DNA of 64,000 bases from Mobula hypostoma (taxonomy: Eukaryota), in the NCBI RefSeq assembly GCF_963921235.1, contig NC_086108.1, forward strand, positions 93,622,001 through 93,686,000, in the 5' to 3' direction. The notes below the pieces were generated by a model. That model was not told where the DNA came from. It did not search any database and was given only the letters and a program-made list of their open reading frames with translations. A program made the translations under genes and the position numbers. This document shows, piece after piece, positions 1,096 to 63,309 of the stretch. The number at the start of each line of letters is the position of its first letter. Positions within the stretch are counted from its first letter, which is position 1.

Positions 1096-1180
1096 AGTCC
1101 TGATGAAAGGTCTTGGCCCGAAATGTTGACTGTTTACGCTTGCCTGGCCCTGCTGAGTTTTTCAGCATTTTGGGTGTATT
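1096..1180 (+). mobile_element. Penelope pLTR fragment starting at a decayed hammerhead, nested in a Rex/Babar-type remnant (~835-1440)
   Basis: AGTCCTGATGAAAGGTCTTGGCCCGAAATGTTGACT followed by CCTGCTGAGTTTTTCAGCATTTTG. Confidence 0.7.
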
Positions 1181-2597
1181 CCTGAGAATAGGAATTGTAA
1201 AGAGTCCTTGAAAGTGAGTCTTTAAGTTGTAGAACCAGTTCAGTGTTGGAGTAAGTGAAGTTATCCACTCTGGTTCAGGAGCCTGATGGTTGAGGGGTAA
1301 TAACTGTTCCTGAACCTGGTGGTGTTGACCATAAGACTTCTGGACCTCCTGCCTGACAGTAGTAGTGAGAAGAGGACGTGGTCTGGGTGGTGGTGGTTTT
1401 TGATGATGGATGTTACTTTCTTGTGGCAGTGCGTAATGTAAATATATTGACTGCTTCAACAAATTAACTTGTATGCTATAAAAATATTTTTCTATAAAAT
1501 ATGCCTTTCCTGAAAGCACAAATTTAAACCTGGTGACGTACAAGAGTACAGCTGGAGCGGGACATTCTAGAGCGATAGGGCAGCCAAGTCTGCAGCCTGC
1601 CTGGGGAGCTCAGTATAGCATTACTGTGCTGTTGGCTGGGTACCTTGTGAAAACAGGGAGGGAACCGCAGAGTCCAAATCTCCCTATGGGTGGGTGTGAC
1701 TGCTACACGGCAAGTGCTTTGCAGAGCAGAGAAGTCCCACAGGTCCTGTGATTCTGGTAATCTGCTTTCAGCTGGGTGGGTTGAGGAGGAGAGGGGTTGT
1801 TATTCGTCAATTCAACAAGAATTCGGAACAAAATGAGCTGGACGCGTTTCAACAAATAAGATCATGGCTCTTCTCGTCTTGCTTTATCAACATCGTGGAA
1901 TTATTTGCCCAGTCTGTTGCAGACATCGATATAATTAGTCTTTTGGCAAATCAGCAATCCAATTACCCTGACATGGAATTATAATTAGTTTCAAAATATT
2001 TGTTGAAGTTAAGTTATCAGTGAATCCACAGCAGCACAATCGTGTGTCTTCATTAGATTAAAAAATTCTCGGGCCAGTCAGTCGGACAGGTTGAAGAATG
2101 ATACATTGATAATAAATGAAAAGCTAACCTTGCTTCTTTGATTAAGTCCATAGCATCCGCAAGCTTCTGATGTCAGTTGCTTAGTTACCAAGTATTTGTC
2201 AAACTTCAGTTAGATAGGAGTTGTAAGCTCGGTAAATTTCCCGAGTCGCTTTTGTCTGAAACCAGCAACTCTGTGAGGGATATCAATTTAACAGATTAAG
2301 ATCGATGGGAAATGTAAAGTGTCATAATGGATCCAGCACAGGGTTGCTTTATCTTCTACACTCACTTTGAAGAAGAATCGGTATCACTTGTACAAGGGTT
2401 ACAAAATATGATTGACTAGTGAGACTCTGTTCCTTTATCTCTATCTCTACTCTTGCTTAGCTCCAACAAGCTTCCAGACACCATCCCAGAAACAACCTTA
2501 CCCTATCAGTACTCAAATAGCCAAGGGTTATATAGTTATATACCAACTTTGATGAGAAGGACCAGGGCATCAAGAACCTATCAACCACAAACCTGAA

Positions 2598-2737
2598 GAA
2601 ACACACACAAAATGCTGGGGGAACTCAGCAGGCCAGGCAGCATCTATGGAAAGGAGTAGCAGTCGTCGTTTCAGACCAAAACCCTTCATCACGTACTACT
2701 TTGATTTCCAACATCTGCAGATTTTCTCTTGTTTGTG
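2598..2737. mobile_element. Short inverted Penelope pLTR-derived element
   Basis: ACACACAAAATGCTGG..GAACTCAGCAGG..CAGCATCTATGG, decayed minus-strand hammerhead, then the TTTCCAACATCTGCAGA..TGTTT tail. Confidence 0.7.
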
Positions 2738-2767
2738 ACAAACGTAAAAAGTTATTTTAATTTATGC

Positions 2768-8695: not shown

Positions 8696-8772
8696 TATCT
8701 TGTTGCTTTGTTAATTCAATCATGAATGAAGTGACGGATGTACTCAATACTTTTCAATTTATTTCCACACAG

Positions 8773-13439: not shown

Positions 13440-13540
13440 CAAAGCAACACACATGAAATGCTGGAGGAACCCAGCAGTTCAGGCAGCATCTATGTAAAAG
13501 AGTAAACAGTCGACGTTTCAGGTCGAGACCCTTCTTCAGT
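13440..13540 (-). mobile_element. Penelope pLTR fragment ending at the hammerhead core
   Basis: Reverse complement of 13507-13539 is CTGAAGAAGGGTCTCGACCTGAAACGTCGACTG. Confidence 0.75.
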
Positions 13541-15921: not shown

Positions 15922-17309
15922 AGAATGCAGAATAAAGTGCAACAGCTACTTAAACCCCCACAAAGAGTCCTGTCGGTTTTAGTACATTGAAGGCAGTCTA
16001 GAAGGGCATGTCGGTGTTGCTGAGGCCCAATTGTTTCCTTCGTATTGCAGTCCAATTGATAATTGAGAGTTTCCAACTATCGGGATGTGCTGCAATCCTA
16101 TCAGACAGAAGACCCATGAGACATTGTAACACCGACAGAAACATTCCGGCCACTACAGGAGCCTGTAGTCCCCACAAGTATATAAGTTGCTGTACATATA
16201 TAGTACATACTGTTATTAGTTTCTCAGTCAGCACATCCCAATACCCAGCGTGCCTCAATGTATTTGTGAAACCATTACAATACTCAAGACCTATTTAGCC
16301 ATGATGCTGAAGATTTAGTGAAGCTTAGATTCAAGTACACTGGGTTCCATTTTCACTGCTGCTGCTGCTGGTTTAGTTCATGCGATAGGGAGCACTCATC
16401 TGGCTGTTACCGACACATATCACTGTTGTCAGCATGTTTGGGAAGTTTTTCAAAATAAAGGTTGAATCTGCTCTGTGATTTAACTTCATCCCCTGGCAAC
16501 CACACTTGCTTCAGAATCCATTCACTCAGGAGATAAGATGTCTTGGTGCTGTTATAGCCGTCTGACAAAGGAGATTAAAAACATCATCAAGATATCGAAG
16601 AGAAGTAATTGCTAGTTAGTGTTTCTTTTATTATTCATTGAGAAAAAGAGATAATATTACCCAACACCAAATATGCATCATTTGACAGCAGATATTGTCT
16701 TGAGATCTTCCTGTACTTCTCAAAGTTAATTTTCTTTCAGTGGTTTAGCATCTAGAATTTATGCCTTGAGACTGGGTGGGATAGACGAATAAGATCACTT
16801 TCAATTATCCATATGAAAGAATCCCAGTGTGGAGTCCAGCTGTTGCTTTAAAGATTCAGGGATTGTGACCTCTGTTCTTCTCCCTAAAAGTGCATGGATT
16901 GATCAATTTTTGTGAGAATAATTTTCCGGGGCCCATCTTTTGTGAGTTTGAAACCTATTGCACTTTTTCCTCTCTTCCAATTTAAATTCAAAGTGCTTTT
17001 CAGATTTTGGCGGTTTCAGAAAGGCAAATGGAACAGTAAGAGTTAAGATAAGCTTGTATTCCGGTACTGTTTTGCTAAACTTCACATCTTCTTTCAAGTA
17101 TCTTGCTCATTACACAATAATTCAACAAAAGACAAGTTTTTGTTATCTGGACATCTGTGGTCGCTTGTTGCAGGTGCGGGAGAGTCCACTGAAGTATAAA
17201 TTACTGTTTACATTTCTAGCATTTAATTACAGACACCATAAGCTGTTATCTTCTCACTCTGCTATTTACTCAGCCATTCTCTTGTGGTAAACTCTTTGAT
17301 TATTTGCAG

Positions 17310-17515
17310 TGTTTAAACTTGGATAAATTCGAAGGCCACTTGGATGAAGGGCACCTCACCCACAGGGCACTTTATCTTCTGGAGGAAAACAAGTTTTGGG
17401 CAGGGATAGTGTTCCCAGACTTGCATCCGTGGTCAAACGAGCTTCCGACTCATGTCAAGTATAAAATCCGAATGGACATTGATGCGGTGGAGCGAACAAA
17501 TAAAATAAAAGACAG
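17310..17515 (+). CDS. ABCA4: ABCA4 exon 12 equivalent
   Basis: tgcag|TGT...AG|gtcag; 206 nt; CLNLDKFEG...FWAGIVFP...[22 protein letters not shown]. Confidence 0.97.
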
Positions 17516-19499
17516 GTCAGTTTCATTCGTAGAACGTAGAACAGTGGAGCACAGAAACAGGCACGAACAGCCGACAATGTCTCTGCAGAACAAGATGCTG
17601 AATTAAATCAACTCCCTTCTGTTGGCACATGGTCCCTCCACCCTGCATATTCATGTATCTAACAACCTATTAAACACCACTGCTGTATATCCTTCCACTA
17701 CTACCCTTGGTGGCTCCTTTCAGGCACCTATCACTCTGTGTTAAAGAAAACTTGCCCTGTACATCCCCTTAACCATTCTCCTCTCACCTTAAATGCATGA
17801 AGAGGACTATAGGATCCCAAAGTAAAACCAACTAGCTATTTGCAAACTCTCAGTAATTTTATGTTCATTCCCATAAGACATGGAAGCACAATCAGGACAT
17901 TTGGCACATCTGCTCCGCCATTTCATTCTGTCTGATTCCTTTTCCTCTCAGCCCCAGTCTCCAGCCTTCTCCCTGTTTCCCTTCCTACCATATGTCCATG
18001 GACCTGCCGAGTTCCTCCAGCAATTTGTGTGTATGTTCCTATTGGTAGAGTTCCTTCCCTGTGCCAAATGTTTGTGGAGTGTCCTGCTGGCATCATACAG
18101 GTTGCAAGTGCTGTCCATCTGACCTGCCTTCCTCCAGTCTACGTCTGAACAGGATAAGCAAAGTATGTGTCAATTTTAAATTGCATGGACCCATGTCTTC
18201 AATAGCTTTACCAGGAGGGAAGGTTGACTGATTTCCCCAATCACTCTTGTTAGCAACACTGTGTCCTGTGCACAGAAGCAAAATGCGGCCTGTCCGAGAA
18301 ACCTAAAGGAAGGCAAAAAATGCTGAACATGTTCAGCAGGGCAGGCAGCCTCTGTGGAAAATCAGGGCAAGTGTTCCACTCACTGACCTTCCACACAATA
18401 CTGAGAGTGGTAAAAGTGAATGGATACCCCAGTGAGATAGAGACATGCCTGCCCAGCATGCCGTCACCTCCGGCGGACAGGGCGAATGAGATCAACGGTG
18501 AGATCTAACGGCCAGGAAGACGGTTCTGCTGTGCTTCAGAAGACATCATAGTTACGACCCCAGTTTGTGACACTTGTTCATACCCCACTGGACCTGGACT
18601 TCCGAAGTCGAGAGAGTGGAACTGCCCGAGTGCACACGCTTTTCCAGTTTAAAAACTCTCCCACACAGGCTTCCTGCCTTTGTCGGACACGACAAAAACA
18701 TTGTGTCGTACACACGGAAACAAAAACGTTGGCCAGAGAGATTGTTTTCTGTGGTTGAAGTTGAACCCCACGGACTCTACCTCACCATCCTCATCAGTTC
18801 CGCAATGCAAGCAATTGCCCCTCTTACTTGCTTGAGCATTGAGTTTGGAAATGGCTGGCGATGGCACCCAGCTTGTTTCAGAATGGGCTCCCCTCCAATT
18901 GTTTCACTTGGCTGTGCTATGAAGTGTAACCAGATGAGCCTGAGTTATTGAAATTAAAAGTGCACATTCTCTCCTACGACTGTAACACTTACACAATGGG
19001 GGATTGTTTCACACAATAGAGGCACAGTGTCCATGGGAGATGTTGAGTGATCCCCACTGCTCATCATTCCACAGAGCTTTGGTGTAGCTATTTCCTTGTC
19101 ATTCCCCTCTGTCTGACCATGGATTGTTTTATGTTGTGCGTACCCCACCCTGTTCCAGGGCCTATACAAGGCTGATTGTGAATATTCTCAGCCACTTTGA
19201 CTGGGCAATAGTCCAACTGTGAGGTTTGTCCGCTCTTTAAAGAGCCATCACAAGTTTCAATCCATTTCATTGAAACTCTGCCTTCACTTGCGACAGGATA
19301 TGACACTCCCTCACTAAACCAACCCCCCAGGCCGTTCCAGTAGCACCGGGTTAGATTCCAATGCCTCTTCCGTATAAACACGCACCTAAAATGGAATAAG
19401 CTGCTGAGCTGAACAGTCTGATCCTGTCATGGGCATCAGAAAGACTCAGCACCAAGTGTCGGAATTTTACTCTTCTGACTCACTGCATTTTATTACCAG

Positions 19500-19860
19500 T
19501 AGTAACGCAGAAAGCACTGGAGGAGCTCGGTGGGTCAGACAGCATCTATGGAGAGAAATGGACAGTGGACGTTTCAGGTTGAGACCTTTCATCGGGTCGG
19601 GGGTGAAAGGGGGAGTTAGCCAGTTTAAAAAGGTGGGGTCAAGGGGGAGGAGCAAGAGCTGCCAGAGTGATAGGTGGATCCCACTGAGGAGGGTTGATAG
19701 ACAGCTGAAGGAGGGTGGCAATGGTGTCAGAAGCCAGGAGGTGATAGGCAGAAGTGACAAAGGGCTGAAGAAGGTGAAATCTGATTGGAGAGGACAGTGA
19801 AGAGTAGAATAAAAGGAGGGAGGTGGGGAGGAGTGTGCGGGTGGTGGGCAGATGGAGAGG
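19500..19860 (-). mobile_element. Older Penelope 3' UTR/pLTR fragment
   Basis: CAGCATCTATGGAGAGAA..GACGTTTCAGGTTGAGACCTTTCATC followed by a purine-rich segment like the 51.7-kb arm. Confidence 0.65.
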
Positions 19861-20145
19861 GTGGGGGATCTTGCAGTAGGTTAAAAGTTAGCACAACATT
19901 GTGGGCCAAATGACCTGTACTATGCTACACCATTCTGCGTTCTATAAACATTTGCTGAAGTTGTAATGATGGATTCATTAGTAAATGCACCATCTGGTCT
20001 GGTGCTGGGCTAGGCATAACATGAAGCTCTTCATACTTGATGCCCTGTGTAATGAGTTATCTTAAAGATGAACACTGCAATCATCCTATTTTTCAGAGTT
20101 AAAGTGGGGGGGGGGGAATAACTGGGACACTGAAATCAGTGATCA

Positions 20146-20625
20146 GGTTTGGGTGGCAGGGTGAAGATAGGTCTCTACCAAAGGAGGTTTAAGGCGCTTT
20201 TTCCCTCTGCTAGCCTATAGGTCACTCTTGGAACTCACATCAAAGTTGCTGGTGAACGCAGCAGGCCAGGCAGCATCTCTAGGAAGAGGTACAGTTGACG
20301 TTTCCGGCCGAGACCCTTCAGGTCACTCTTGGGCTAGGTGTAGCACCTGCTTAGCCCCCTGGTCAGGGTCACATGAAGCGGTGAGAGCAGGGTCATATGA
20401 ACAACTGGTGTATATCACAAGACCTTGTGATGTAACCACTGACGCTAGGCAGGCAATCACTGAAGATTATTGATAATGGCTGGGGTCACCCATCTTGTAA
20501 AGACACTGCCCAGAAGAAGGCAATGGCAAACCACTTTTGAAGAAAAATCTGCTAAGAACAGTCCTGGTCATGGAAAGACCATGATCACCCATATCATATG
20601 ACATGGCACATATTAATGATGATGA
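20146..20625 (+). mobile_element. RTE/BovB-related non-autonomous element, interrupted by a Penelope fragment
   Basis: GAAGAAGGCAATGGCAAACCACT (Bov-A-like motif) and (GAT)n tail. Confidence 0.55.
20232..20319 (-). mobile_element. 88-bp Penelope pLTR insertion
   Basis: Perfect 13-bp TSD AGGTCACTCTTGG at 20219-20231 and 20320-20332. Confidence 0.85.
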
Positions 20626-21076
20626 TCTCTCTTGTATGGAACATGGATATTTATGCATTAGTGTAGAAAAAAACATGCTTGGGGGTGGGAGTTGCTACAT
20701 AGCTAGCCTGCGTCTCAACAGTTAACACTTACATTCATATGTGAAGGTTGAGTACTTGGGGAAAGTACCAAAGATTTGACTACACCCACAAAATTGGTCC
20801 ATACTCTTGCACTGTGCCACATGTGTAGTGATTTTGTTAACCCTTCATTTATCCTTTTCCTTTATCTACAAATCCTTCCACAGAGCCATTCATCTTTGTT
20901 TTGTAGCCTTGTCCACTTCCAGTGCCACCTGCTCTCTTCCCTTCTGTGACTTCAATTTCCTGTACCTGCTCCCCAGCCCATCACTGACAAGAGCACTTCA
21001 GCACAACTCCAAACCTTAACAACCTTTCGTGGCCAGCAGTAATGGTGACTGTCGATTCAGGCACTGAATGCATTGT

Positions 21077-21647
21077 AAACACAAAATAATCCGCAGATGC
21101 TGGGGTCAAAGCAACACTCACAACACGCTGGAGGAACTCAGCAGGTCGGGCAGCATCCGTGGAAAAGATCGGTCGACGTTTCGGGCCGGAACCATTCGTC
21201 AGGACTACTCAGGTTGGAGGAGCAACACCTCATATACCGTCTAGGTAGTCTCCAGCCCCTTGGTACGAACATAGAATTCTCCAACTTCCAGTAATTCCCT
21301 CCCCCTCCCTTCCCTTATCCCTATGTCACTCTGCCCCCTCCCCCAGCTGCCTACCTCCTCCCTCTTGGATCCTCCTCCTTCTACTACCCATTGTGTTTTC
21401 CCCTTTTCTTTCTTCACCTTTCCTGCCTATCACCTCCCTGCCTCCCTTCCCCCACCCCTTTATCTTTCCCCTTACTGGTTTTTCACCTGGAACCTACCAG
21501 CCTTCTCCTTCCCACCCTCCCCCCACCTTCTTTATAGGGCCTCTGCCCCTTCCCTCTACAGTCCTGACGAAGGGTTCCGGCCCAAAACGTCAACCAATCT
21601 TTTCCACGGCTGCTGCCCAACCTGCTGAGTTCCTCCAGCATGTTGTG
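21077..21647. mobile_element. Inverted-end Penelope-like element with GIY-YIG C-terminal remnant
   Basis: Perfect 14-bp TSD ACTGAATGCATTGT (21063-21076, 21648-21661); LRLEEQHLIYRLGSLQPLGTNIEFSNFQ; hammerheads at 21171-21206 (-) and 21560-21595 (+, GAAA mutated to AAAA). Confidence 0.9.
21171..21206 (-). ncRNA. Minimal hammerhead ribozyme motif
   Basis: Reverse complement AGTC-CTGACGA-ATGGTTCCGGCCC-GAAA-CGTC-GACC. Confidence 0.7.
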
Positions 21648-22271
21648 ACTGAATGCATTGTGTCTCCCTAACTCTTCTCAGGTGGTTATAATCAACAAAA
21701 CATTAAAAAATTAGTTCACTGTTTCACAACGACAAGTGATAATGAGAGAAATCTGCTTAACCTGTCTGTATCTTAGCTACACTTAATATATTGCCCTCTG
21801 TTAATCTATTAACAGGATAAGTGAATTGGTGGTTGATTCACAAGCAGTAAGCCCTGGTTCTCAACACATTGGTTCCCTTCAAATGAGCACAAGGATACCC
21901 TTCAACCTCAAGCATCCATGAACTGCTTGAACTCCTCTTGTCATTTGTCCCTCTCGGCTCAAGTGTATGTAACTTCTGCCTATTTGTCTGTAGAATACTC
22001 ATAACAATTTGCACTTGTAGATTATCTTTAATGTAGTAAGTGTTCCCAGGTGTTCCACAGGAGGGTTAGCAAGCCCCATCTGCCATCGAGTCATGTAGAC
22101 CAATACTAGTGCATACTGTATTTTCCAAAAGTTAAAATCAAGTAGGATGGAAGAAGTTTCTGTGATCTCCTTATCAGAGGAAGGAAAGGTGGGAGGTACA
22201 ATTAAAGGAAAGAATTCCAGAGTTTCAGGCTGCAGCAGCCGCCAGTGATGAACAACTAAAAGCCCTGCTAC

Positions 22272-36534: not shown

Positions 36535-39500
36535 TAGAAAATAAGAAAACCTACAGCACAATACTGGCCCTTCGGCCCCCAATGCCGTGCCGATCATGTA
36601 CCTTCTTTAGAAATTACCTAGAATTACTCATAACCCTCTATTTTTCCAAGCTCCACGTACCTATCCAGGAGTCTCTTATAAGATCCTATCATATCCGCCT
36701 CCACCACCATCACTGGCAACCCACTTCAAGCACTCACCACTCTCTGCGTAAAAAAACTTACCCCTGACATCTCCACTGTACTTACTTCCAAGCACCATAA
36801 AATTGTGCCCTGTCATGTTAGCCATTTCAGCCCTGGGAAAAAGCCTCTGACTATCCACACGATCAATGCCTCTCATCATCTTAGACACCTCTATCAGGTT
36901 ACCTCTCATCCGCCGTCGTTCCAAGGAGAAAAGGCCGAGTTCATTCAATCTATCCTCATAAGGCATGCTCCCCAATCCAGGCAACACTCTTGTAAAACTC
37001 CTGTGCACCAATTCTATGGTTTTCACATCCTTCCTGTAGTGAGGCGACCAGAACTGAGCACAGTACTCCAAGTGGGGTCTGACCAGGGTCCCTTATAGCT
37101 GCAACATTACCTCTCAGCTCCTAAACTCAGTCCCACAGTTGATGAAGGCCAATACACCATATGCCTTCTTAACCACAGAGTCAACCTACACCAAAGCTTT
37201 CAGTGTCCTATGGACTCGGACACCAAGATCCTTCTGATCCTCCACACTGCCAAAAGTCTTACCACTAATGCTATATTCTGCCGTATCATTTGACCTACCA
37301 AAATGAACCACCTCACACTTATCTGGGTTGAACTCCATCTGCCACTTCTCAGCCCAGTTTTGCATCCTATCAATGTCCCACTGTAACCTCTGACAGCCCT
37401 CCACACTATCCACAACACCCCAAACTTTCTGTCATCAGCAAATTTACTAACCCATCCCTCCACTTTCTCATCCAGGTCATTTATAAAAATCACGAAGAGA
37501 AGGGGTTCCAGAACAGATCCCTGAGGCACACTGCTGGTCACCGACCTCCATACAGAATATGACCCATCTACAACAGCTCTTTGCCTTCTGTGGGCAAGCC
37601 AATTCTGAATCCACAAAGCAATGTCCCCTTGCATCCCATGCCTCCTGATTTTCTCAATAAGCCTTGCATGGGGTACCTTATCAAATCCCTTGCTGAAATC
37701 CATATACACTACATCTATTGCTCTACCTTCATCAATCTGTTCAGTCACATCCTCAAAAAATTCAATCAGGCTCGTAAGGCACGACCTGCCTTTGACTATT
37801 CCTAATCATATTATGCCTCTCCAAATGTTCATAAATCCTGCCTCTCAGGATTTTTTCCATCAATTTACTAACCGCTGAAGTAAGATTCATTGGTCTATAA
37901 TTTCCTGAGCTATCTCTACTTCCTTTCTTGAATAAGGGAACAACATCTGCAACCCTCCAGTGCTCCGGAACCTCTCCTGTCCCCATTGATGATGTAAAGA
38001 TCATAGCCAGATGCTCACCTATCTCCTCCCTCGCCTCCCACATTAGACTGGGGTACATCTCGTCTGGTCCCAGTGACTTATCCAACTTGATGCTTTCCAA
38101 AAGCTCCGGCACATCCTCTTTCTTAATATCTATATGCTCAAGCTTTTCAATCCACTGCAAGTCATCTCTACAATCGCCAAGATCCTTTTCTGTAGTGAAT
38201 ACTGAAGCAAAGTATTCATTAAGTTCCTCTGCTATCTCCTCCAGTTCCATACACACTTTCCCACTGTCACACTTGATTGGTCCTATTTTATCACGTCTTA
38301 TCCTCTTGCTCTTCACATACTTGTAGAATGCATTGGGGTTTTCTTTAATCCCGCCCACCAAGGCCTTCTCATGGCCTCTTCTGGCTCTCCTAATTTCATT
38401 CTTAAGCTCCTTCCTGCTAGCCTTAAAATCTTCTAAATCTCTATCATTACCTAGTTTTTTGAACCTTTCATAAGCTTTTCTTTTCTTCTTGACGAGATTT
38501 ACAACAGCCTTTGTACACCACGGTTCTTGTACCCTACCATCCTCTCTCTATCTCATTGGAACATACCTTTGCAGAATGCCACACAAATATCCCCTGAACA
38601 TTTGCCACATTTCTGCTGTACATTTCCCTGAGAACATTTGATCCCAATTTATGCTTCCAAGTTCCTTCCTGATAGCCTCATATTTCCTTTTACTCCAATT
38701 AAATGCTTTCCTAACTTGTCTGTCCCTATCCCTTTCCAATGTCAGGGTAAAGGAGATAGAATTGTGATCACTATCTCTAAGTTGCTTTCCTTCTCCCACT
38801 GAGAGATCTGACACCTGACTAGGTTCATTTCCCAATACCAGATCAAGTCCAACCTCTCCTCTTGCAGGCTTATCTACATATTGTGTCAAGAAACCTTCTT
38901 GAACACACCTAACAAACTTCACCCCATCTAAACCCTTTGCTCTAGGGAGATGCCAATCAATATTTGGGAAATTAAAATCTCCCACCACAACAACCCTGTT
39001 ATTATTACATCTTTCCAGAATCTGTCTCCCTATCTGCTCTTCGATGTCCCTGTTACTATTGGGTGGTCTATAACAAACACCCAGTAAAGTTTTTGACCCC
39101 TTCCTGTTCCTAACTTCCACCCATAGATTCTCAGTAGACAATCCCTCCATGACTTCCTCCTTTTCTGCAGCCGTGACACTATCTCTGATCAGCAGTGCCA
39201 CGCCCCCACCTCTTTTGCCTACCTCCCTGTCCTTTCTGAAATATCTAAAGCCTGGCACTCTAAGTAGCCATGCCTGCCCCTGAGCCATCCAAGTCTCTGT
39301 AATGGCTACATCATAGCTCGAAGTACTGATCCACACTCTAAGCTCATCCACTTTGTTCATAATACTCCTTGCACTAAAATAGACACATCTCAAACCATTG
39401 GTCTGAGCACATCCCTTCTCTATCACCAGCCTATCCTCCCTCTCACACTGTCTGCAAGCTTTCTCTATTTGTGAACCAACTGCCCCTTCTTTCGTCTTTT

Positions 39501-39696
39501 CAGTTCGGTTCCCACTCCCCAGCAGTTCTAGTTTAAACTCTCCCCAATAGCCTTAGCAAACTTTCCCGCCAGGATATTGGTCCCCCTCAGATTCAAGTGC
39601 AACCCGTCCTTTTTGTACAGGTCACACTTGCCCCAAAAGAGATTCCAATAATCCAGAAACCGGAATCCCTGCCCCCTGCTCCAATCCATCAGCCAT
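36535..39696 (-). mobile_element. CR1 LINE with near-complete ORF2 (APE endonuclease + RT, disrupted) and ORF1 esterase C-terminus
   Basis: APE motifs ITETW, GDFNFP, SDHN; RT motifs [25 protein letters not shown]1 LYKKDGLHLN (SGNH DxxH) at ~39550-39690; split by stops and frameshifts. Confidence 0.93.
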
Positions 39697-42026: not shown

Positions 42027-42260
42027 AAGCAACACCCACAAAATGCTGGAGAAACGCATCAGTTCAGGCGTGCTCTATGGAAGTGAATAAACAGTCGACA
42101 TTTCAGGCTGAGACCCTTACTTGGGCCCCAAAGGAGGGTCTCGGCCCGAAACATTGACAGTTAATTACTTTCCATAGATGCTGCCTCACCTGTTGGAGTT
42201 TCTCCAGTATTTTGTGTGTGTTGCTTTGGATTTCCAGCATCTGCAGACTTTCTCCTGTTT
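42027..42260. mobile_element. Palindromic Penelope pLTR element
   Basis: TSD ATATTCATAATGTT / ATACTTATAATGTT (42013-42026, 42261-42274); arms meet at the hammerheads. Confidence 0.8.
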
Positions 42261-43648: not shown

Positions 43649-44146
43649 TGACAATGAAGTTCCATAGCGGTCAACCCCTTATCCAGAATCAGAATCAGTT
43701 TATTCAAGGACATTATCTCAGAGCGGTTACTTTAGTTAATCCTGAGGCTAAATATTAATGAATTCAGACCATAATGTCAACAGTTTTCTTATCTCAGACT
43801 CCCTATCCAGAGATTATGTCCAGATTCTCCAGTCTTCAGTGTCCACACAAAAAATTCCTTCACAATCCCATTCCTTATTGCCATCCAGACTAATGATGAA
43901 GTCTTCTGTGCTGGCTCAGTGTTGTTTTCCGATGGAGAGATAACCTTGGAAATCTAACAGGTAAAGTCTGCCACATGATTAGCTAAAATAACTGCCCCGA
44001 TATTATATTCTTCAGTGAAGTAATTCTTTGTAAAATGCTGCCAGTGTGGATTAATTTAATTGGGAGTTATTTCATCGTAAGCTATTGTATCCTAGCTTGC
44101 ATCCAAAGTGGGCATTAATCAAAATTTACTTTTAATCTTTGCTAAG

Positions 44147-44485
44147 ACAAAAATGAACTGAGAGGAGCTGTGAAAGAGCCCGAGAAGGTGGAGACACCTG
44201 CGGAGGCAAAGGAAGAGAAACCAGCAGAGAACACGGCAGAGCAAACAGAGCAAGCGCCAGACAACCCCGGGGATGGCGACAAGCCGAAGGAAAGCAAGAA
44301 GATTTGCAAACTAAAGGAAAAAGAGGTGAAGGAGCAGCTTGAGAAGGAGAGGCAGGAGAAGGAGAGACTTGAGAAGCAAAAGCAGGAAATGGAAAGGCGA
44401 GAGAAGGAAAAGCAGGAGATGGAAAGGCTGGAAAAAGAAAAGCAGGAGAAGGAGAAGGAGAAGGAAAAGGAAAAAATCAACCCCG
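44147..44485 (+). CDS. ABCA4: ABCA4 exon 18 equivalent, expanded E/K-rich linker exon (339 nt)
   Basis: ctaag|AC...CCCG|gtaat; phase 1-1, open frame continuous with exons 17 and 19; occupies the position of the 90-nt human exon 18; no recognisable sequence homology, so the call rests on frame, splice sites and position. Confidence 0.8.
44311..44460 (+). repeat. Coding minisatellite, 5 x 30 bp (10-aa unit EKEKQEMERL-like)
   Basis: Units at 44311, 44341, 44371, 44401 and 44431 translate LKEKEVKEQL / EKERQEKERL / EKQKQEMERR / EKEKQEMERL / EKEKQEKEKE. Confidence 0.9.
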
Positions 44486-44569
44486 GTAATAACTCAGATC
44501 AGTAACGCTTTAAAATCGGCTTTACAGCACTTCATGATGTTGACTATGTTTGTCTTTATCTGTTGGCAG

Positions 44570-45602: not shown

Positions 45603-45790
45603 AAAACAAGAGAAAATCTGCAGATGATGGAAATCAAGGTAACACACACAAAATTCTGGAGGAACTCAGCAGGTCAGGCAGCGTCTATGGAAATGAACAA
45701 GCAGTCGACGTTTCGGGCTGAGACCCTTCTTCAGGACTGGAGAAAAGAGATAAGGTCAGAGTGAGAAGGTGGGGGGGAGGGGAGGGAGAC
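45603..45790 (-). mobile_element. Penelope pLTR copy with intact hammerhead
   Basis: Full tail, pLTR body and hammerhead at 45702-45739; an opposite-strand decayed copy lies at ~46375-46668. Confidence 0.8.
45702..45739 (-). ncRNA. Minimal type I hammerhead ribozyme motif
   Basis: Reverse complement reads CAGTC-CTGAAGA-AGGGTCTCAGCCC-GAAA-CGTC-GACTG, with a 5-bp stem I. Confidence 0.8.
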
Positions 45791-47939
45791 TTCACTCAAT
45801 AACTGCTATACAATAATAGAGACAAAGGGTCAAAATGGTCCCTTCGGCCCGTCTCATCCTGGGCATCCATGACGCCTATCTATACCGATCCAATCAGTCG
45901 GCATTAGGCTCCTATCTGTATATTTCTTCCCAATCCAAGTACCTGTCCAAACGCCCTTTAAATGTATTTGTCTCCACCATCTCCTCTGCCCACTCATTCT
46001 GTATAATAACTACCCTCTGACTGGAAAAACCTTCCCCCACAGATCTCATTTAATTTTCTCCCCTCTCACTTTAAACCTACAGTATGCCTCGCTTTAGACT
46101 CTCTTACCCCATGAAAAAGACTTAGATGATCCACCATATCCATGCCCCTCATAATCTTATAAACCTCTATAAGGTTTTTAAGGAGCTTACTATTCAGACG
46201 TCCCTCTTTCTTATCCAAGTCATTTGTAGGGTACCTATGAAATACCACAAAGGTCCCAGCATTAATACTGTATTACCCCACTGGTGACAGATGTCCAGTC
46301 AGAAAAGCAACCCTCTACCATTGCATTCTGTTTTCTATTACCAAACCAATTGTGGATCCAGTTTGGCAATGTGTCTTTCCCTCTCTCACCTTAGCTTCTT
46401 ACATGCCCCTCCCTCCCTCTGGTGCTTGCCCTCCTTCCCTTTCCTCTCTGGTCTTCCACCCTTTCCTATTAGATTCCCCCTTCTCCAGCCCTTTATCTCT
46501 CCCACCAATTGACTTCCCAGCTATTTACTTCACCCCTCCCCCTCTCTCAGTTTCACCAATCACCTGTCCCCTCCTACTTCTTCCTTCCCTCCCCCCACCT
46601 TCTTATTCTGACTTCTTCCCCCTTCCTTTCCAGTCCAGATGAAGGGTCTCGTTGCAAACCGTCGACTGGTAATCCCTTGCTGGAATCCATGTATGCCAGA
46701 TCCACTACTCTGCCTTCATCAGTTTTCTTCATTACTTCCTCAAAGATCCAGAGCAGGACTTTCCACGTATAAAACCATGTTGACTTCCACCAATCAGTCC
46801 CCATCGTTCCAAATGAACATAAATCCTGTCCCTGAAATGAGATTCAGCATTGCACTAAGTATGATTATGAAGACACGTAGTCCTCTTTTATTGTCATTTA
46901 GTAATGCATGCATTAAGAAATGATACATTACTTCCTCTGGTGTGATATCACAAAACACAGGACAAACCAAGACTGAAAAAACTGACAAAGCCACATAATT
47001 ATAACATATAGTTACAACAGTGCAACAATACCATAACTTGATGAAGAAGTCCCTGAGCACAGTAAAGTTTAAAGTTTCTCAAATGTCCCACATCTCACGC
47101 AGACGGGAGAAGGAAGAAAAACTCTCCCTGCCATGCCGACCACAATCCGACTCATCTGAAAACTTCGAGCTCTGATCAGCTCTCCGTCACCGAGTACTGA
47201 GCACTATCTCTGTCCAAACGATTCAACCTCTTTCTCGGTTGCCAAAAGCAGGCAACGCCAGGATTTTCAGGCCTACCCTCCAAAAGATTCCCGACCACAC
47301 AGTAACGACAGCAGCGAATGGGCGTTTCAGAAATTTCTCCAGATGTTCCTCTGTGCTTTCACGTCCATTCTCCATCAAATCAGAATTGTCCACGGCCCCT
47401 ATTTAACAGATACAATATCATTTTTCACCGGTTTGTTAAGTAAAAGATAACTTGGATTGTTGTAATAATGAGATTTATCCCTGGGATCAAACAATTTCAG
47501 ACTCTAACAAGTTTACCAAAACTTAAAAGGTCCAAGTAAGGAAAACAGGAAATTAATAACAAGCGTTTAAATAAAACCCTCTGTGCCCTTGTGTCATGCC
47601 AAAGCACCTTCACATAAATAATGAGAGGGAGATAAGGGACAACAGGAAAATACACTGTAAGTACGCAGTTTATTTATCTGTGTTGACATATGATCACATA
47701 ATGGAATTGAAATGAGTCACAATAAGTGACCTGTCATAGACAGGCAATGAATGAAGAGATACGCACTGCTGCTTAAAGCTGCACACTGATGTTGTTAAGA
47801 TTTATTATATGCTGCCCTAAAATCGTTAGCTGACATTTACAGCTGGAGCCGAAACTCGTATTTTCAAACCATTGAACTGAATTAAAATCCGGTGTTTCAG
47901 GAAAAAGCCAAATCTAAAGTAATTTTAATAGGCCAAACC

Positions 47940-50124: not shown

Positions 50125-50269
50125 AAACACGAGGAAATCTGCAGATGCTGGAATTTCAAGCAACACACATAAAAGTTGCTGGTCCTGACGAAGGGTTTCG
50201 GCCCGAAATGTCGACTGTACCTATTCCTAGAGATGCTGCCTGGCCTGCTGCGCTCACCAGCAAAGTTTA
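50125..50269. mobile_element. Short inverted Penelope pLTR element
   Basis: TSD TCTTAACGTCTGT / TCTTAATGTCTGT (50112-50124, 50270-50282). Confidence 0.85.
50182..50216 (+). ncRNA. Minimal hammerhead motif (slightly decayed)
   Basis: GTC-CTGACGA-AGGGTTTCGGCCC-GAAA-TGTC-GAC. Confidence 0.65.
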
Positions 50270-50778
50270 TCTTAATGTCTGTGCTGAGTTAGCTGGTTTA
50301 ACAGACAGGTTAGTCTCCTCTTCCTACCCACCTTCAACTTTCTCCTCTTTACCTCCCCCTCCCCCATCCCCTGACCCACCCCCTCTTCCCTGATCGCTGC
50401 TGTTCTGGAGGTGAGTGTTTGTCAAGGGTGCGTGAAGGTCCAGTTGTAGTTTGTCTGTGGGGCCACTGATATGGAAACAAGGTGGCCACCCTTGTTATTC
50501 GTGGTTCACACAGAAGTGGCTTCCTTGGCAACATGCTGGGGACGGAAGCATCAGCACAATCAGGAAGGACGAAGAACTTGTCAAAAGGAGCTTTAGCATT
50601 GCAAACTAATTCCTACAGGACCAAACAGTATTAATTGCAAGATGTCAGTGATGGATTGCCAGCTCCTTAAAATAACAATTGAATTTGCGCAAAGTTGTGT
50701 AATTACGTCTTAAGGTGTGCAACAAATTTTTCACGTGTACTCAGTTTTAAAAGTGGACAATATTATTTCTACAAAGTT

Positions 50779-51325: not shown

Positions 51326-51457
51326 GTCAATGCTGATTGGGTTATTTCCACCCACATCTGGTACGGCATTTATTAACGGCAAGGACATCCGCACAGAAAT
51401 TGAAGCTATCCGACAGGACATCGGTGTATGCCCCCAGCACAACATCTTGTTCAATAA
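51326..51457 (+). CDS. ABCA4: ABCA4 exon 20 equivalent (NBD1, Q-loop)
   Basis: aatag|G...AA|gtaagc; 132 nt; [43 protein letters not shown]. Confidence 0.96.
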
Positions 51458-51675
51458 GTAAGCAGAATATCTCAACAGATCTGGATATACAGTTCTGGTC
51501 GGCCCACTGTAGGAAGGATGTTGAGGCTTTGGAGAGGATACAGAAGAGGTTTACCAGGATGCTGCCTGGTTTAGGGAGCATGTGCTATCACGAAAGGCTG
51601 GATAAACTTCAGGCAACATACATCAAAGTTGCTGGTGAACGCAGCAGGCCAAGCAGCATCTATAGGAAGAGGCGC

Positions 51676-51711
51676 AGTCGACGTTTCAGGCCGAGACCCT
51701 TCGTCAGGACT
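51676..51711 (-). ncRNA. Minimal type I hammerhead ribozyme motif
   Basis: Exact reverse complement of the 52946-52981 motif, in the left arm of the palindrome. Confidence 0.8.
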
Positions 51712-52945
51712 AACTGAAGGAAGAGTGAGTAAGGGATTTGAAAGCTGGAGGGGGAGGGTGAGATGCAAAATGATAGGAGAAGACAGGAGGGGGAGGGATA
51801 GAGCCGAGAGCTGGACAGGTGATAGGCAAAAGGGGATACGAGAGGATCATGGGACAGGAGGTCTGGGAAGAAAGACAAGGGGGGGGGGTGACCCAGAGGA
51901 TGGGCAAGAGGTATATTCAGAGGGACAGAGGGAGAAAAAGGAGAGTGAGAGAAAGAATGTGTGCATAAAAATGAGTAACAGATGGGGTACGAGGGGGAGG
52001 TGGGGCCTTAGCGGAAGTTAGAGAAGTCAATGTTCACGCCATCAGGTTGGAGGCTACCCAGACGGAATATAAGGTGTTGTTCCTCCAACCTGAGTGTGGC
52101 TTCATCTTTACAGTAGAGGAGGCCGTGGATAGACATGTCAGAATGGGAATGGGATGTGGAATTAAAATGTGTGGCCACTGGGAGATCCTGCTTTCTCTGG
52201 TGGACAGAGCGTAGATGTTCAGCAAAGCGGTCTCCCAGTCTGCGTCGGGTCTCACCAATATATAAAAGGCCACATCGGGAGCACCGGACGCAGTATATCA
52301 CCCCAGTCGACTCACAGGTGAAGTGATGCCTCACCTGGAAGGACCGTTTGGGGCCCTGAATGGTGAGACCCGACGCAGACTGGGAGACCGCTTTGCTGAA
52401 TATTGGTGAGACCCGACGCAGACTGGGAGACCGCTTTGCTGAACATCTACGCTCTGTCCGCCAGAGAAAGCAGGATCTCCCAGTGGCCACACATTTTAAT
52501 TCCACATCCCATTTCCATTCTGACATGTCTATCCACGGCCTCCTCTACTGTAAAGATGAAGCCACACTCAGGTTGGAGGAACAACACCTTATATTCCGTC
52601 TGGGTAGCCTCCAACCTGATGGCATGAACATTGACTTCTCTAACTTCCGCTAAGGCCCCACCTCCCCCTCGTACCCCATCTGTTACTCATTTTTATGCAC
52701 ACATTCTTTCTCTCACTCTCCTTTTTCTCCCTCTGTCCCTCTGAACATACCTCTTGCCCATCCTCTGGGTCACCCCCCCCTTGTCTTTCTTCCCGGACCT
52801 CCTGTCCCATGATCCTCTCGTATCCCCTTTTGCCTATCACCTGTCCAGCTCTCGGCTCTATCCCTCCCCCTCCTGTCCTCCTATCATTTTGCATCTCCCC
52901 CTCCCCCTCCAGCTTTCAAATCCCTTACTCACTCTTCCTTCAGTT

Positions 52946-52981
52946 AGTCCTGACGAAGGGTCTCGGCCTGAAACGTCGACT
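52946..52981 (+). ncRNA. Minimal type I hammerhead ribozyme motif
   Basis: AGTC-CTGACGA-AGGGTCTCGGCCT-GAAA-CGTC-GACT: stem I AGUC/GACU, both core boxes, stem II, GUC triplet. Confidence 0.8.
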
Positions 52982-55122
52982 GCGCCTCTTCCTATAGATG
53001 CTGCTTGGCCTGCTGCATTCACCAGCAATTTTGATGTATGTTGCTTGAATTTCCAGCATCTGCAGAATTCCTGTTGTTTGTGGATAAACTTCAGTTCTCT
53101 TCTCTGGAGCACCAGAGGCTGAGGGGGAGAACTGATAGAGCTTTACAAGATTATGAATGCTACAGATGCCACAGATAGAGTGGACAGAGAATATCTATAT
53201 CCCAGGGGCATTCAGCTCATCCTGTTCACGCTGGCATGATCTTCTACCTAGTCTCATCTACATTCACCTGGACCATATCCTTTCAAGCCCCTCTCTTCCA
53301 TGCACTTATCCAAATTCCTCTTAAAAATGTTACAATTGAATCCGTATCTGCCACTTGCACAGGCAGCACGTTCCACGCTCCCTGCACCCTCTGAGTGAAG
53401 AAGTTTCCCTTCAAATTCCCCTTAAGTGCTTCACCTTTCACCCTAAACCTATGACCTGTATTTCTAGTCTCACCTAACCTGAGGGGAAAAGCCAGCTTAC
53501 ATTCGTTCTATCTAAACCCCTCAACATTTTGTATACCTCTGTAAGAACACACCTTGGTCACCTCTGCTCCAGGAATTAAAGTCCTAACACATTCAACCTT
53601 TCCCTATAACTCAGGTCCTCAAGTTCCGGCAACATCTGTGTAAATAATTGTGAAGTTTAGTACAATGTAGTACCTTTTGAGAAGAAGAAATGGAAGGTCT
53701 CTTAGGACTTAGAAGGTGCTAGGTGCTGTAGAGGATGAATGGGAATCTGGAGTACAAATAAACCAATCAAACAAAGCTGCACCACAGGTAGCAATACCAA
53801 ATAGAAAGCAAGTTAAGAAATGGACATTTTTACTAGAGGGACAGATCCCAAATTAAACTTGCATCAGAGAGATTGGATATGGAGAGATATTTCTATAAAT
53901 AGGTTATTCTAGAATCAGAGGGCACAGTTTCAGAATAAATAGATATCCCTTTAGAACTGAGATGAGGAAGAAATTTCCACAGCAAGAAGATTCCACAGTG
54001 GTGAATCTGTGGAATGCATTGCCATGGAGGCCTGTGGAGGTAAAGCAACTTGTTGCATTTCAGGTAGATATTAATAGGTTCTCGATTGGCAAAAGGATTA
54101 AGGATTACAGGGAAATACACACAAAATGCTGGAGGAACTCAGCAGGCCAGGCAGCATCAATGGAAAAGAGAACAGTCGACGCTTTGGACCAAAACCCTTC
54201 AGCAGGGCTACAGGGTAAAGGTGGGAGAGTGGATGAAAAAAATCAGCCCTGATTGAATGGTGGAGTAGACTCAATGGGCCAAATATCAAACCTTAGCTGA
54301 GCCATACTTTTCAAGTGTTTCTCCTGATACCAGCATCAGCCATCTCTTGAGTCTCCACACGTGCACACAGATCTGATCACCACGTTATTAATGACATGAT
54401 CAGGAGACGATCGAGGGGATGGGGTGAAGATTTAAAATGATGGTTTCGAGTTTGGACAGACCATACATGTCAGGAAAAGATATACAGACTGGGTCTCCTC
54501 ACTGTCAAAAGAAAGCTGGTGGGAGATCTAACTGAGGTCTTTACAATAATGGAAGTTTATCATGACTGAGTACAGAGAAATTATATTTTCTTGAGAGGAA
54601 AAGAATAGTTAGAGACTCTTCAAGATAAAATAGTCGCCTTGAAATACAGTAGGGAAGCTTCGCCCAAAGGCCGGTGGGTATGTGAAACCTGCGACCATTG
54701 AGAATAGGAAGGAAGAGGCAGAAGGAAACAGAGGCTCCTGGTGACATATTTACAGAAGGAAATATTGGAGGTCTGAATGTAGCAAAAACACCAAGGTGGA
54801 ATTGTCAGCCCAAATGACTTCTTTTTCGAGCAGTCTATCTACATAATGCTTTGCCGTGGAGCCAACTATACGGCTTTCTGGGCAAAGAAGAAACTGAAGG
54901 AAATGTGAGGTAATGAAGTTTAGATTAAGTAATGTGAGTTAAAATTTTGGAGCCAGTTCATGTGGCAATGCTTCAGAAAAAAAGTCATATCAAAAACTTG
55001 ACCATTTGAACACATTTTTCAGGCTCAGAATCAGGTTTAATATCACTGGCAGATGTCATGAAAGTTGTTGTTATACAGCAGCAGTATATTGTAAAACATA
55101 ATAAAAAGTAAATTATAGTAAG

Positions 55123-55129: not shown

Positions 55130-55201
<72 letters not shown>
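55123..55201. repeat. Compound (TG)n(TA)n(GA)n microsatellite
   Basis: Direct reading. Confidence 0.95.
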
Positions 55202-55205
<4 letters not shown>

Positions 55206-59248: not shown

Positions 59249-59386
59249 GTGGAATGCAGAGGAAATTGTCAGTAGCCTTAGCGTTCATTGGGGGAGCTAA
59301 GGTGATCATTCTGGATGAGCCAACATCTGGAGTAGATCCATATTCCAGACGATCTATCTGGGATCTCCTACTTAAATATCGTTCAG
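59249..59386 (+). CDS. ABCA4: ABCA4 exon 22 equivalent (ABC signature, Walker B)
   Basis: cacag|GT...CAG|gtacg; 138 nt; [46 protein letters not shown]. Confidence 0.98.
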
Positions 59387-62300
59387 GTACGGTACCCTTT
59401 CAATGACTTCAGTGAGAAAAGAATATGCACTGTATGCAATGAAGTTACACTGAAGCCTTTTATCAATATTGTATCCTGAATATGAAAAAAAATTCTTGTG
59501 ACTGCTTCATCAACAACTGTACAAGAAAGCTGTATGCTTGTGCGTCTGCTTGTCTATGTGCTCATGTGCGGGTGTGTTGTGTGTCTATAAAGTGATTTTA
59601 AAACTTACCTCTAATTGTACGTTGAAGCCTACAGTGAAGCACATCATTTGTGTTAAATCAAAGCAGTGAGGGTTGTGTTGGGCAGCCCGCAAGTGTTGCC
59701 ATACCTCCATCGTCAACATAGCATGCCCACATTTCACTAAACCTAACCATACATCTTTGGAATACGGGAGGAAACAAACATCCGAAAGTGAGAAATGTTG
59801 TTTACACCTGGCTCTGATTGGGCTTTCAGGTAAGGTCCAAGCCCGTATGTTAGTCCATGCCAATATTGACCATAATCTGTTCCATCATTAACCGTACTCA
59901 TATCATTGTTAACCATTAGTCAGCTCCACCATGAACTATTCTCCTTGCCATCAATAACCAAAGCCCATGCTATCCTTAATCAGTAGTATGAAATTGTTAA
60001 CCATAGTGCACGCCATCAATAACCAGTCCTTGCCATCGACTCTGCCATAATTTCATTCAAATTCCACCCTTTAAGCTTACCTGCTGCCAACTTCCCAGAC
60101 TTTACTGTCCTGTTCAGCCTCTCACTCTGTTCCCTGTACGCTTCAAGTCATCCAAAACTCTTAATGATCTAGCCTGCACTGCCCTGTGCTCTCTGACCTA
60201 TATTATTGCCCCAGGGAAAAATGCTCATTTCGTTTTCAAACTGCTCCTTTGTCTTTCTCCTCCCATTCTCTCTCACCTCCTCCATCCATGCAATCATCTG
60301 AGGAATCTGTGTTCCTTTAATTTCTTTTTAACTCATTACTCAACCACTGACAGCCACTGGAACTCCCTACCTTAAATTCACTATCTCCTCCTCCTGCCTC
60401 ATTTAAGACTTTCCTTAAAATGTACGTCTTTGACTAGGTTTTCAGTCATCTTCCTTAAATACAAAGAATGAATCGGCTTCGACATTCTTGAGACATTTTG
60501 CTATCTCAAACATGCTATATAAAGGAAGATGCTGTTCTTAATTTTGATAAAATGGTCTCATAGCAAAAAGTAATGGTTGGGTGTGGGCAAGGAGGGCTGC
60601 AATTAGAGCATTAAAAAAGTCTGGGTGTGTCACAGGTAGCTTTAGAGTCATAGGTTAATACAATGTGAAACAGCCCCTTTGGCTCAACATCCTCTTGGCC
60701 AAATTCCCTACTGAGCTCATCCCATTTACTTATATTTGGCCCATGAACCTCAAAATCTTTCCTAACTACGTACTGTACGTGTCCAACCATCTTTTATACA
60801 CTGTCATCGTATCTGCTTCCACGACTTACTCTTGCAGCTTGTTCCAGATTGCCATTGCCCTAATTGATTCATTTATCATTTGTATTTGCACAATTTGTCG
60901 CCTTCTTGCACGTCGGTTGCTTGCCAGTCTTTGTGTGTAGCTTTTCATAGATTTTATTGTATTTCTTCGTTTCACTGCAAATGCTCGCAAGAAAAAGAAG
61001 CTCAGCAAATAATGACATATACTATATGTACTTTACTTTATTCTCGGCATGAAAAAATTGCCCATCAAGTCCCCTTTAAATATTTTCCTTGTCATCTTAA
61101 GTATTTGCCCTCTACTTTTAGTCTTTCGCTATTGTGGGGAAAAACAGACTGACCATTCGTTTTATCTTATAGTTTTATATACCTCCATAAGGTCATTCCT
61201 CAGCCCTAGGCATTCCAGAGCAAAATACTCCAGCCATCCAGTCTCTCCTTCTAACTCAAGCCATCCAGTTCTAATAATATCCTTGTGGATCTTTGAAATT
61301 GAATTTGGGGTTAAGGAAAACATCAGGTGAACGAGACTGCACTGACCATTTCTCCGACGTGTCTTCCCTCCTCGGGCACACCTCACCGAGTCATGGCCAA
61401 GGAGGGTACACAGAATCGTGGTTGCTTTCTTTGGGTAGGTGAAAACCTCCCACCGTCCAACACACACACATTCAATGTCCAGAGATTGGAAGCTGATGAA
61501 TGAAGCCCGGAGACTGATGCAGCAGGTGCTCCACGGCCAACTCGAACAGCAGATGGACTTGTCTGATCTTGGCTCCTTGTTTGTATCTTATCCACAAAGC
61601 CACTTGTCTCAGCAACAGAGTGTTCTTGTGCTGGTTGTCAATCTCCTTTAACACAATGGGAGCTTTTATACTGGAGAATTCACAAGTTGAAAGAGCAAAC
61701 GCTGGAAGAAACCCAGCAGGCAGCCCAGAGATCTTCCACAGGATGGAGATAACATTGCAGATCAATGACATCTGATTTCAGGTTTCCTGCATCTGCAATG
61801 ATTTAGCTCTCACTTTGCATTAGTCAAACTTTGACCTTGGTTACCCAACTCTGAGTTAAAAGCTGCATTTGTGCAGGAGTTTGCCTGAGGTGTCCCTGAA
61901 CCAGGTTCAAAAATGAAAGCAAATTTATTATCAAAGTACATATATGTCACCATGTACATACTACTTCAAGATTCATTTGCTTACAGTCACTGTAGAGCAA
62001 AGAAATACATAGAGTCAATGAAAAACTACACAGAAAGACTCAAACAACCGATGTGCAAAAGAAAGCAAACTCCAAAGAAAATAAGTAGATAATAAATAAA
62101 CAAACAAATAAATAAATAGGTAGATAATATTAAGAAAATGAGTTATAGAGTCCTTGAAAGTAGGTCCACAGGTTGTAGAATCAGTTCAGTGATGAGGTGA
62201 GTGAAGTTCTCCTCCCGGCTTAGGAGTGTGATGGTTGAAGGATATTAGCTCTTCCTGAGCTTGCTGATATAGGAGCAAAGGCTCCTGTACTTCCTTCCTG

Positions 62301-63309
62301 GTGGCAGCAGCGAGACTAGAACATGGCCTGTGTGGTGGGGGTCCTTAACAATGGATGCTACCTTCCTGTGGCAGTGCTCCTTGTAGAGCTCCCGGGGTGA
62401 TAAGCAGTGGTGCCGGGTGCTGCTATCACTGTGAGGTCGCTGCGGTTGAGCAAACACACAAGCTGCTTTCATTTAAATAAGCTCAAAGTCTCGCATTACA
62501 TCTACAGCACCAGAGCCACACTACTGTCCCTCATCACTGTCCAACCACAAGACACAGGAGCAGAATTAAGCCAAATGGCCCATTGATCATGGCTGATTTA
62601 TTTTCTCCTTCAACACGATTCCTTGTATCTACTAATCCAGAACCTATCAACCTCTGCTTTAAGTATATCGAGTGCAACAGTAAGATGGCCGTTATGCCTA
62701 CATTCAGGAATACTCTCTGTGTCTGAGCAGCCCGTCTGCATGGTGTCCATAATAAGACAGTTCTGATCAACTGATAATATTTTTGACTGTACTCTGTGCA
62801 ACTGCAGTCAAGTTGTTATTGAGGTGACTTCACATTATCCAGTGAGAACCATTCAATCACAGATAAACGGTTCCAGGAACTCTCCTCCCACATGAGCCTC
62901 TCCCACTCACCCCTTCTGAGCCACGTGCAGCAGCAGAACTGGTAACCTGTTCAGAAAAGGGACTATAAAGCAGTATTTAAAATATCTGGAGGCACAAGAG
63001 ACTGCAGATGCTAGAATCAGATGATGGGTCTCAACCCTAAATGTCAACTGCTTGTTTCTTTCCATGGATGCTACCTGACTTTGCTGAGCTCCCCCAGCAG
63101 TCTGTGTGTTACTTAAAGTATAAACCTACTGTTTTTTCTTTTTCTTCTCCTTCACTCCTGCTATCGTCACCTTTCCTACCTTGCACCCAACTCCATCACC
63201 TCACCACCCTCACGACCTTTATCCTCACCCTCATCTTTACCATCTTTATCTTCACCATCTCAAAATTCACCTCCAGCACTTTATCCTCCATCACCTTCAC
63301 CACCTCCAA

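Follow-up and report, generated by a model that had tools for sequence, protein, structure and literature searches.

Do the introns of ABCA4 in Mobula hypostoma carry ribozymes that cut the gene's own transcript? The question arises from a window of 64,000 nucleotides (NC_086108.1, positions 93,622,001 to 93,686,000; coordinates below count from its first base), the whole stretch of DNA analysed here. The initial annotation had recognised a hammerhead ribozyme motif recurring within the ABCA4 introns, and proposed that sense-strand copies could pair in cis and cut the introns during transcription. We find it highly probable instead that these motifs are truncated, often head-to-head 3' ends of Penelope elements bearing an already known hammerhead, and that they ride in the introns as inert passengers with no useful cutting of the pre-mRNA. 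This reading is based on copy number, neutral decay of the ribozyme core, the lack of sense-copy depletion, the inverted geometry of the insertions, and their target-site duplications (TSDs).

A profile built from 11 window copies recovered 23 copies of a single repeat family in the window, 11 on the plus strand and 12 on the minus strand, and none in the reversed window used as control. All lie within ABCA4, whose exons are on the plus strand, making 11 copies sense and 12 antisense to the gene. The motif does recur on both strands as first described: 19 of the 20 positions originally listed are copies of this family, with the minus-strand coordinates marking the low ends of the motif. Four further fragments were found, at 18001, 18361, 36231 and 41924. 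Position 41309, originally called a split copy, has only a 13-nt match to the 5' end of the motif; a 3' remnant at 41924 makes a split possible.

The anatomy is that of a minimal type I hammerhead. In the sense copy at 52946–52981(+), helix I has five pairs, followed by CUGACGA, an extra A, a helix II of four pairs with a tetraloop, GAAA, and a loop-less palindrome, ACGU, for helix III. This copy is intact by our descriptor and is predicted to cut after C17, which sits at 52977, the position originally named. Two antisense copies had also been called intact, and both are: 51711–51676(−), in the left arm of an insertion described below, and 45738–45703(−), which together with its tail (45637–45738) represents an older subfamily. 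These three and 26931(+) are the only 4 of 23 window copies to pass the strict descriptor, leaving 2 of 11 sense copies (26931 and 52946). The core boxes CUGANGA, GAAA and UH are intact in all four; at 1096, 13539, 21206, 26853 and 50182 they are kept alongside weaker stems. The sequence of the sense copy at 50182–50266(+) has AUGU at helix III, and 26931 passes with AUAU, a palindrome that likely arose by double CpG decay.

The same descriptor was run over 1,829,000 bases of known gene strand in 12 genes, ABCA4 and 11 dynein heavy-chain genes (hereafter the 1.83-Mb sample). It gave 29 hits (0 in the reversed sequence), all from this Penelope family and none from other hammerhead families; the palindrome was ACGU in 28 and AUAU in one. 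An Rfam scan of the window matched no hammerhead family at E ≤ 1, yielding only chance microRNA matches on the hairpin at 26833–26951.

The assignment to the Penelope type, with a palindromic helix III lacking loop 3, holds for core boxes, stems and palindrome alike; judged by these sequence features, the motif is the minimal hammerhead ribozyme (min-HHR) of Penelope pseudo-long terminal repeats (pLTRs), with predicted activity. PMC4209133 gives a min-HHR consensus for metazoan Penelope-like elements, including Xena, Poseidon and Neptune of fishes. The copies here share with it the core boxes, a helix I of 4–5 bp, an unpaired base between 9 and 10.1, the palindromic 15.2–16.2 without loop 3, the location in a pLTR, and an arrangement of mostly single copies with some close opposite-strand pairs. 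They differ in their short helix II of four pairs with a tetraloop, in the G10.1–U11.1 of the youngest subfamily where G–C is usual, and in showing little stem covariation within this genome. Copy number also differs, at ∼59,000 intact-pattern copies versus ∼4,000 in coelacanth and ∼9,000 in Xenopus, although those figures were obtained with other descriptors.

The motif forms the 3' end of a Neptune-like Penelope element. Both in the window and in loci bearing reverse transcriptase (RT), it follows the endonuclease stop codon and a 3' untranslated region (UTR). Within the window the hammerhead at 51711(−) follows the remnant of a C-terminal GIY-YIG endonuclease (52011–52379(−); Pfam PF01541 at the curated cut-off, E 1.4e-4), in which 94 of 123 residues (76%) are identical to the end of the RT-endonuclease frame in L043. 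Three RT-endonuclease frames (L009, L012 and L042) carry a C-X4-C-X2-C linker, a feature that PMC8557442 names for Neptune and Nematis. We call the element Neptune-like only, on the basis of this linker motif, which Nematis shares. None of 13 fetched stretches of 7–10 kb yielded a complete element that keeps a natural 5' end. A tandem array on C90 (L211:1844-8963 and L213:1796-4232) has a 2,342-bp period with one hammerhead per unit and no Penelope coding match; it is likely a local duplication.

The presence of the motif on both strands is largely explained by insertions that are themselves head-to-head pairs. One such insertion, single and young, occupies 51599–53094 and is flanked by a 14-bp TSD (51599–51612 and 53081–53094). 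Its left arm (51613–52261(−)) consists of the endonuclease end, 3' UTR, hammerhead and tail, is antisense to ABCA4 and is transcribed first; its right arm, with a one-sided tail of ∼32 nt, spans 52400–53080(+). The arms, 649 nt each, differ by 8 mismatches (99% identity). A 39-nt direct duplication at the inversion junction (52361–52399) is likely a template-switch scar. Four other head-to-head pairs were mapped: 26853(−)/26931(+) at 26756–27033, with 128-nt arms at 84% and the descriptor-positive AUAU sense copy; 21206(−)/21560(+) at 21063–21661, with a 14-bp TSD and G12A in the sense copy; 42121(−)/42127(+) at 42027–42227, both cores broken; and 36216(−)/36231(+) at 36120–36299, broken. In the 1.83-Mb sample, 44 of 51 neighbour pairs within 100 nt were divergent and two were convergent, while beyond 500 nt distance alone cannot tell true inverted insertions from chance neighbours.

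This layout matches what is known. Inverted-pLTR insertions with a one-sided tail of 30–40 nt are described for endonuclease-positive Penelope-like elements in PMC8557442, PMC3846280 and PMC11167929. The insertions here share the 5' truncation, the head-to-head copy, the 14-bp TSD and 3' ends ∼35 nt apart, and differ in no way in kind from those described there. The 3' ends of copies cluster near +98 and +133, as expected from the two initiation sites in what PMC11167929 reports. Motif, element and insertion layout are already described in the literature. Reverse transcription would start at two sites, ∼98 and 133 nt past the motif start, on uncut RNA, and would usually stop early; a second, inverted copy would often be added, leaving one hammerhead per strand.

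Such geometry bears directly on the proposal of co-transcriptional cutting by sense copies paired in cis, with 50182 and 52946 as the best case, which would lower or tune the ABCA4 mRNA; we regard it as very improbable. In its favour, these two copies, separated by 2,764 nt, have every core box intact, and full helices can be drawn for a swapped dimer. PMC4209133 reports that min-HHR monomers are inactive and that dimers cleave weakly in vitro, and PMC11167929 and PMC10919898 report in vitro cleavage by an anole Penelope hammerhead and modulation of Cpeb3 mRNA by an intronic ribozyme in mouse. However, 50182 is the sole same-strand, core-intact neighbour of 52946 within 5 kb, it lies upstream across the exon at 51326–51457, and the antisense arm 51613–52261 sits between the two. 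That arm is predicted to pair with either copy, at −152 kcal/mol with 50182 and −220 kcal/mol with 52946, against ∼−11 kcal/mol for the swapped dimer. Whether it joins two 52946 copies or 52946 and 50182, such a dimer is predicted to cost ∼11 kcal/mol more than the folded monomers and to be far less stable than pairing with the antisense arm. Beyond 52946, the nearest intact sense copies are reached only after a further 37 and 64 kb, in different introns. The insertion, with its 8 mismatches in 649 nt, is also too young to be a conserved feature of the gene.

Folding predictions placed all 37 nt of the 52946 hammerhead in pairs with the upstream antisense arm (p > 0.9), and also paired much of the other sense copies with their upstream arms: 28 of 36 nt for 26931, 32 of 36 for 21560, and 23 of 37 for 42124. 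In a host transcript, synthesis of such an insertion always reaches the antisense arm before the sense hammerhead, which that arm would then sequester as double-stranded RNA. For solo sense copies, there would be no partner close by to complete helix III. No strictly intact copy of the window has a same-strand, core-intact neighbour nearer than 2.7 kb. The two descriptor-positive sense copies, 26931 and 52946, each lie downstream of their own antisense arm, differ in palindrome, and are 26 kb apart.

If pre-mRNA were cut efficiently, sense copies should be purged. We saw no depletion of sense copies in the 1.83-Mb sample, either among remnants or among intact copies. Remnants numbered 166 sense and 154 antisense (P = 0.54), and the sense:antisense counts were 14:13 for exact matches, 18:11 for descriptor hits, 41:30 for copies with all core boxes and 9:3 for solo intact copies. 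Given that just two of the window's 11 sense copies satisfy the descriptor, each of them behind an antisense arm, and that sense copies are not depleted, the proposed pairing in cis and cutting of ABCA4 introns is not supported.

Among the 320 copies of the sample, 183 cover the motif. G12, described as the general base in PMC6155905, is A in 51 of these, matching the loop CpG, whose G is A in 49; G12 therefore decays neutrally. Non-CpG core positions have changed at rates of 7.5% in sense and 9.0% in antisense copies, and stems and loop at ∼10%. N7 was C in 77 copies, U in 80, A in 19 and G in 7, against 21 cases of G8A, so N7 differs among source elements beyond what CpG decay explains, which is compatible with selection at the source. 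The original statement that this base varies as the core tolerates is therefore right in that N7 differs between subfamilies, but part of the C/U difference is CpG decay. Subfamilies differ from one another at N7, in loop 2 and at position 11.1, whereas most of the core is unchanged, and the stems show only one-sided or loop changes. A core change, A6C, is found in 27 of 183 copies (∼15%), among them the copy at 54209(−), and marks a subfamily that was amplified; PMC3088659 reports low activity for A6C in another hammerhead.

A lack of stem covariation across genomic copies had been named beforehand as an outcome that would refute the idea. Genome-wide, 7 of 16 double mutants at 2.2/1.2 restored a standard pair versus 5.2 expected, and 22 of 39 at 10.2/11.2 versus 19.5 expected; at these two pairs, in this genome, there is no covariation beyond mutational bias.

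Cleavage has also left no fossil at the ends of copies. No more than 97 matches stop at C17, and many of these are one-base deletions or substitutions; the 541 matches that start at G1.1 are no excess over neighbouring offsets (523 at +3, 814 at −1 and 1,381 at +1, uncorrected). Corrected for capture, starts amount to ∼1.5% of the subfamily at G1.1, ∼3% at +3, ∼4% at −1 and ∼11% at +1, with extrapolated denominators. A control for 3' ends, with 264 matches, is of little value, as a single subfamily dominated it. The lack of a copy-end excess at the cut site indicates that templates were mostly uncut, as for the anole element, for which PMC11167929 reports that hammerhead mutants had no effect on insertion, that uncut RNA was the main template, and that no RNA-seq reads ended at the cut site.

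Genome-wide, the first G in AGUC, where helix I begins, is the starting point of young copies ∼3–4 times more often than nearby offsets are, with 50182 as the instance in the window; 7 of 65 young copies start at this +1 position. The pile-up may mark an RNA start or a reverse-transcription stop. Just ahead of helix I, every subfamily seen has a pyrimidine tract that ends in AG (52900–52947, 46590–46633, 45737–45780 and 26890–26932), much as an intron ends at helix I in the Penelope of D. virilis. A splice-acceptor role for the tract was considered but found no support: no GT..AG joint into the AG was present among 15 of 123 joints listed, and the seven copies starting at +1 share no common upstream exon.

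These edges raise the alternative that the motif is merely hammerhead-shaped, kept in source elements for an RNA start, a splice acceptor or protein binding, and does not cleave even in tandem RNA. The good amplification of the A6C and G10.1–U11.1 subfamilies, the lack of covariation, the piling up of copies at the 5' edge rather than the cut site, and the tract with its AG would all suit it. Yet the published consensus is matched in all core boxes, in the additional base that follows A9 and in the palindrome, most core positions are stable between subfamilies, and the listed joints offer no splice into the AG. We give this alternative a small, though real, chance. Ribozyme function, if there is any, likely belongs to tandem RNA of active source elements.

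ABCA4 is an accidental host, and the motif is not special to it. The intact pattern has 58,651 exact matches in the 3.48-Gb genome (control, 0). The window has 3 versus 1.08 expected (P = 0.10, or P = 0.29 if the inverted pair is counted once). The initial description of a dense population is thus correct for remnants of all ages, which number 55 in 169 kb of ABCA4 (3.25/10 kb) compared with 265 in 1,660 kb of dynein genes (1.60/10 kb; 11 of 20 delimited dynein heavy-chain genes, each in part), but not for intact copies, which do not exceed the genome rate.

Several points weigh against regarding the copies as inert passengers. The twofold remnant density of ABCA4 over the dynein genes is one. 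Loss of G12 is commoner in sense copies (38 versus 21 of 100, P = 0.013), which could hint at inactivating selection; loss of G8 runs the opposite way (8 sense versus 20 antisense, P = 0.024), and either base is lost in 43 versus 36 of 100. A 50182/52946 heterodimer is formally possible, its helix III having three standard pairs and one wobble, and the folding energies omit the tertiary core, its contacts and protein helpers. The intact-copy counts of the strand comparison are small, with a 95% interval of 0.42–0.79 for the sense share, and few cell types express dynein genes. Rare or harmless cleavage would escape the strand test, since an intron can be spliced even after it is cut.

A bolder version would have thousands of intact sense intronic hammerheads across the genome dimerise, together or in trans with abundant Penelope RNA, and nick nascent introns at a low rate, those of ABCA4 among them. 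We consider this a very long shot. If true, co-transcriptional splicing would hide the cost and purging would be escaped, producing a genome-wide, transposon-made layer of intron cleavage. If shown, cleavage of host introns would also be the first in vivo activity for min-HHR motifs, whose role PMC8557442 calls unclear. As it stands, and judging from the 12-gene sample, introns tolerate intact-looking hammerheads by the tens of thousands, on one strand as much as on the other. This equality is an argument that hosts are safe from the minimal form, both because it needs to dimerise and because its own inverted arm captures it. A literature search, with subscription papers and bioRxiv supplements outside its coverage, turned up nothing published about ABCA4 hammerheads in chondrichthyans or about a strand bias of minimal hammerheads in introns.

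Two known systems invite comparison. The RECK/CTCL/DTNB hammerheads of amniotes (PMC6155905) and the Cpeb3 ribozyme (PMC10919898) are domesticated intronic ribozymes whose motif, like that of the sense copies here, reads in the direction of the host intron. As described there, they are single and conserved, unlike the recent, decaying transposon copies here, which have no helix III. Domestication was rejected on account of the young TSD-flanked insertion, the neutral core decay and the 58,651 siblings. Non-LTR retrozymes (bioRxiv 10.64898/2026.07.22.740005) have a Penelope-pLTR-related type I hammerhead and occur in a chondrichthyan, but they form head-to-tail tandem arrays, whereas window copies are solo or head-to-head; in that preprint, one of nine Xenopus dimers cleaved. 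A tandem retrozyme, with its head-to-tail hammerhead units, was rejected for the window on the ground that the nearest same-strand core-intact neighbour of any strictly intact copy is at least 2.7 kb away.

Any effect on ABCA4 might come from long double-stranded hairpins, leading to A-to-I editing, exon skipping or back-splicing, rather than from ribozymes. The 649-nt arms at 99% form one predicted duplex, a hairpin beginning 156 nt after the donor of the exon at 51326–51457. An 89-nt inverted pair at 87% (50182–50270 and 51622–51710) lies on either side of the same exon and is also predicted to form a duplex, making the exon a candidate for editing, skipping or back-splicing. Against this, one contig of a related organism, from a presumed-RNA run, joins 44765 directly to 51326 with the exon included. 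That contig shows normal splicing across the intron, in an organism that may lack these insertions. We think such a hairpin effect unlikely.

The remaining copies are mostly decayed. Sense copies are found at 1096–1183(+), with core boxes kept and G10.1 and C15.2 changed; at 46632–46678(+), broken by U4A, G12A and A15.1C; and at 63018–63111(+), broken by U4A and G12U. On the minus strand are a decayed copy at 2596–2691, a 5'-truncated copy without the 5' arm of helix I at 13441–13539, two decayed or truncated copies (19597 and 20320) at 19505–20320, and the broken A6C copy at 54112–54209.

The host gene was mapped by tblastn with ABCA4 proteins. About 17 coding exon pieces map in order on the plus strand (5660–59388), and the gene extends past both window ends, with flanking exons found at C50:93.604-93.773 Mb. 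The exon at 17298–17516 has human ABCA4 as its top solved-structure match (E 3e-31, versus 9e-21 for ABCA1) and matches a catshark protein at 88%. Another exon, 44146–44501, precedes the first nucleotide-binding domain and encodes a charged, Glu/Lys-rich repeat with a 15-nt period. Catshark protein P0001 aligns there at ∼50%, a bird protein (P0002) has no alignment there, and the exon is present in contigs of two presumed-RNA runs. A broken CR1/L2-type long interspersed nuclear element (LINE) that retains parts of its endonuclease and RT lies at 37200–39552(−), and many more LINE fragments, some inverted, are scattered through the ABCA4 introns.

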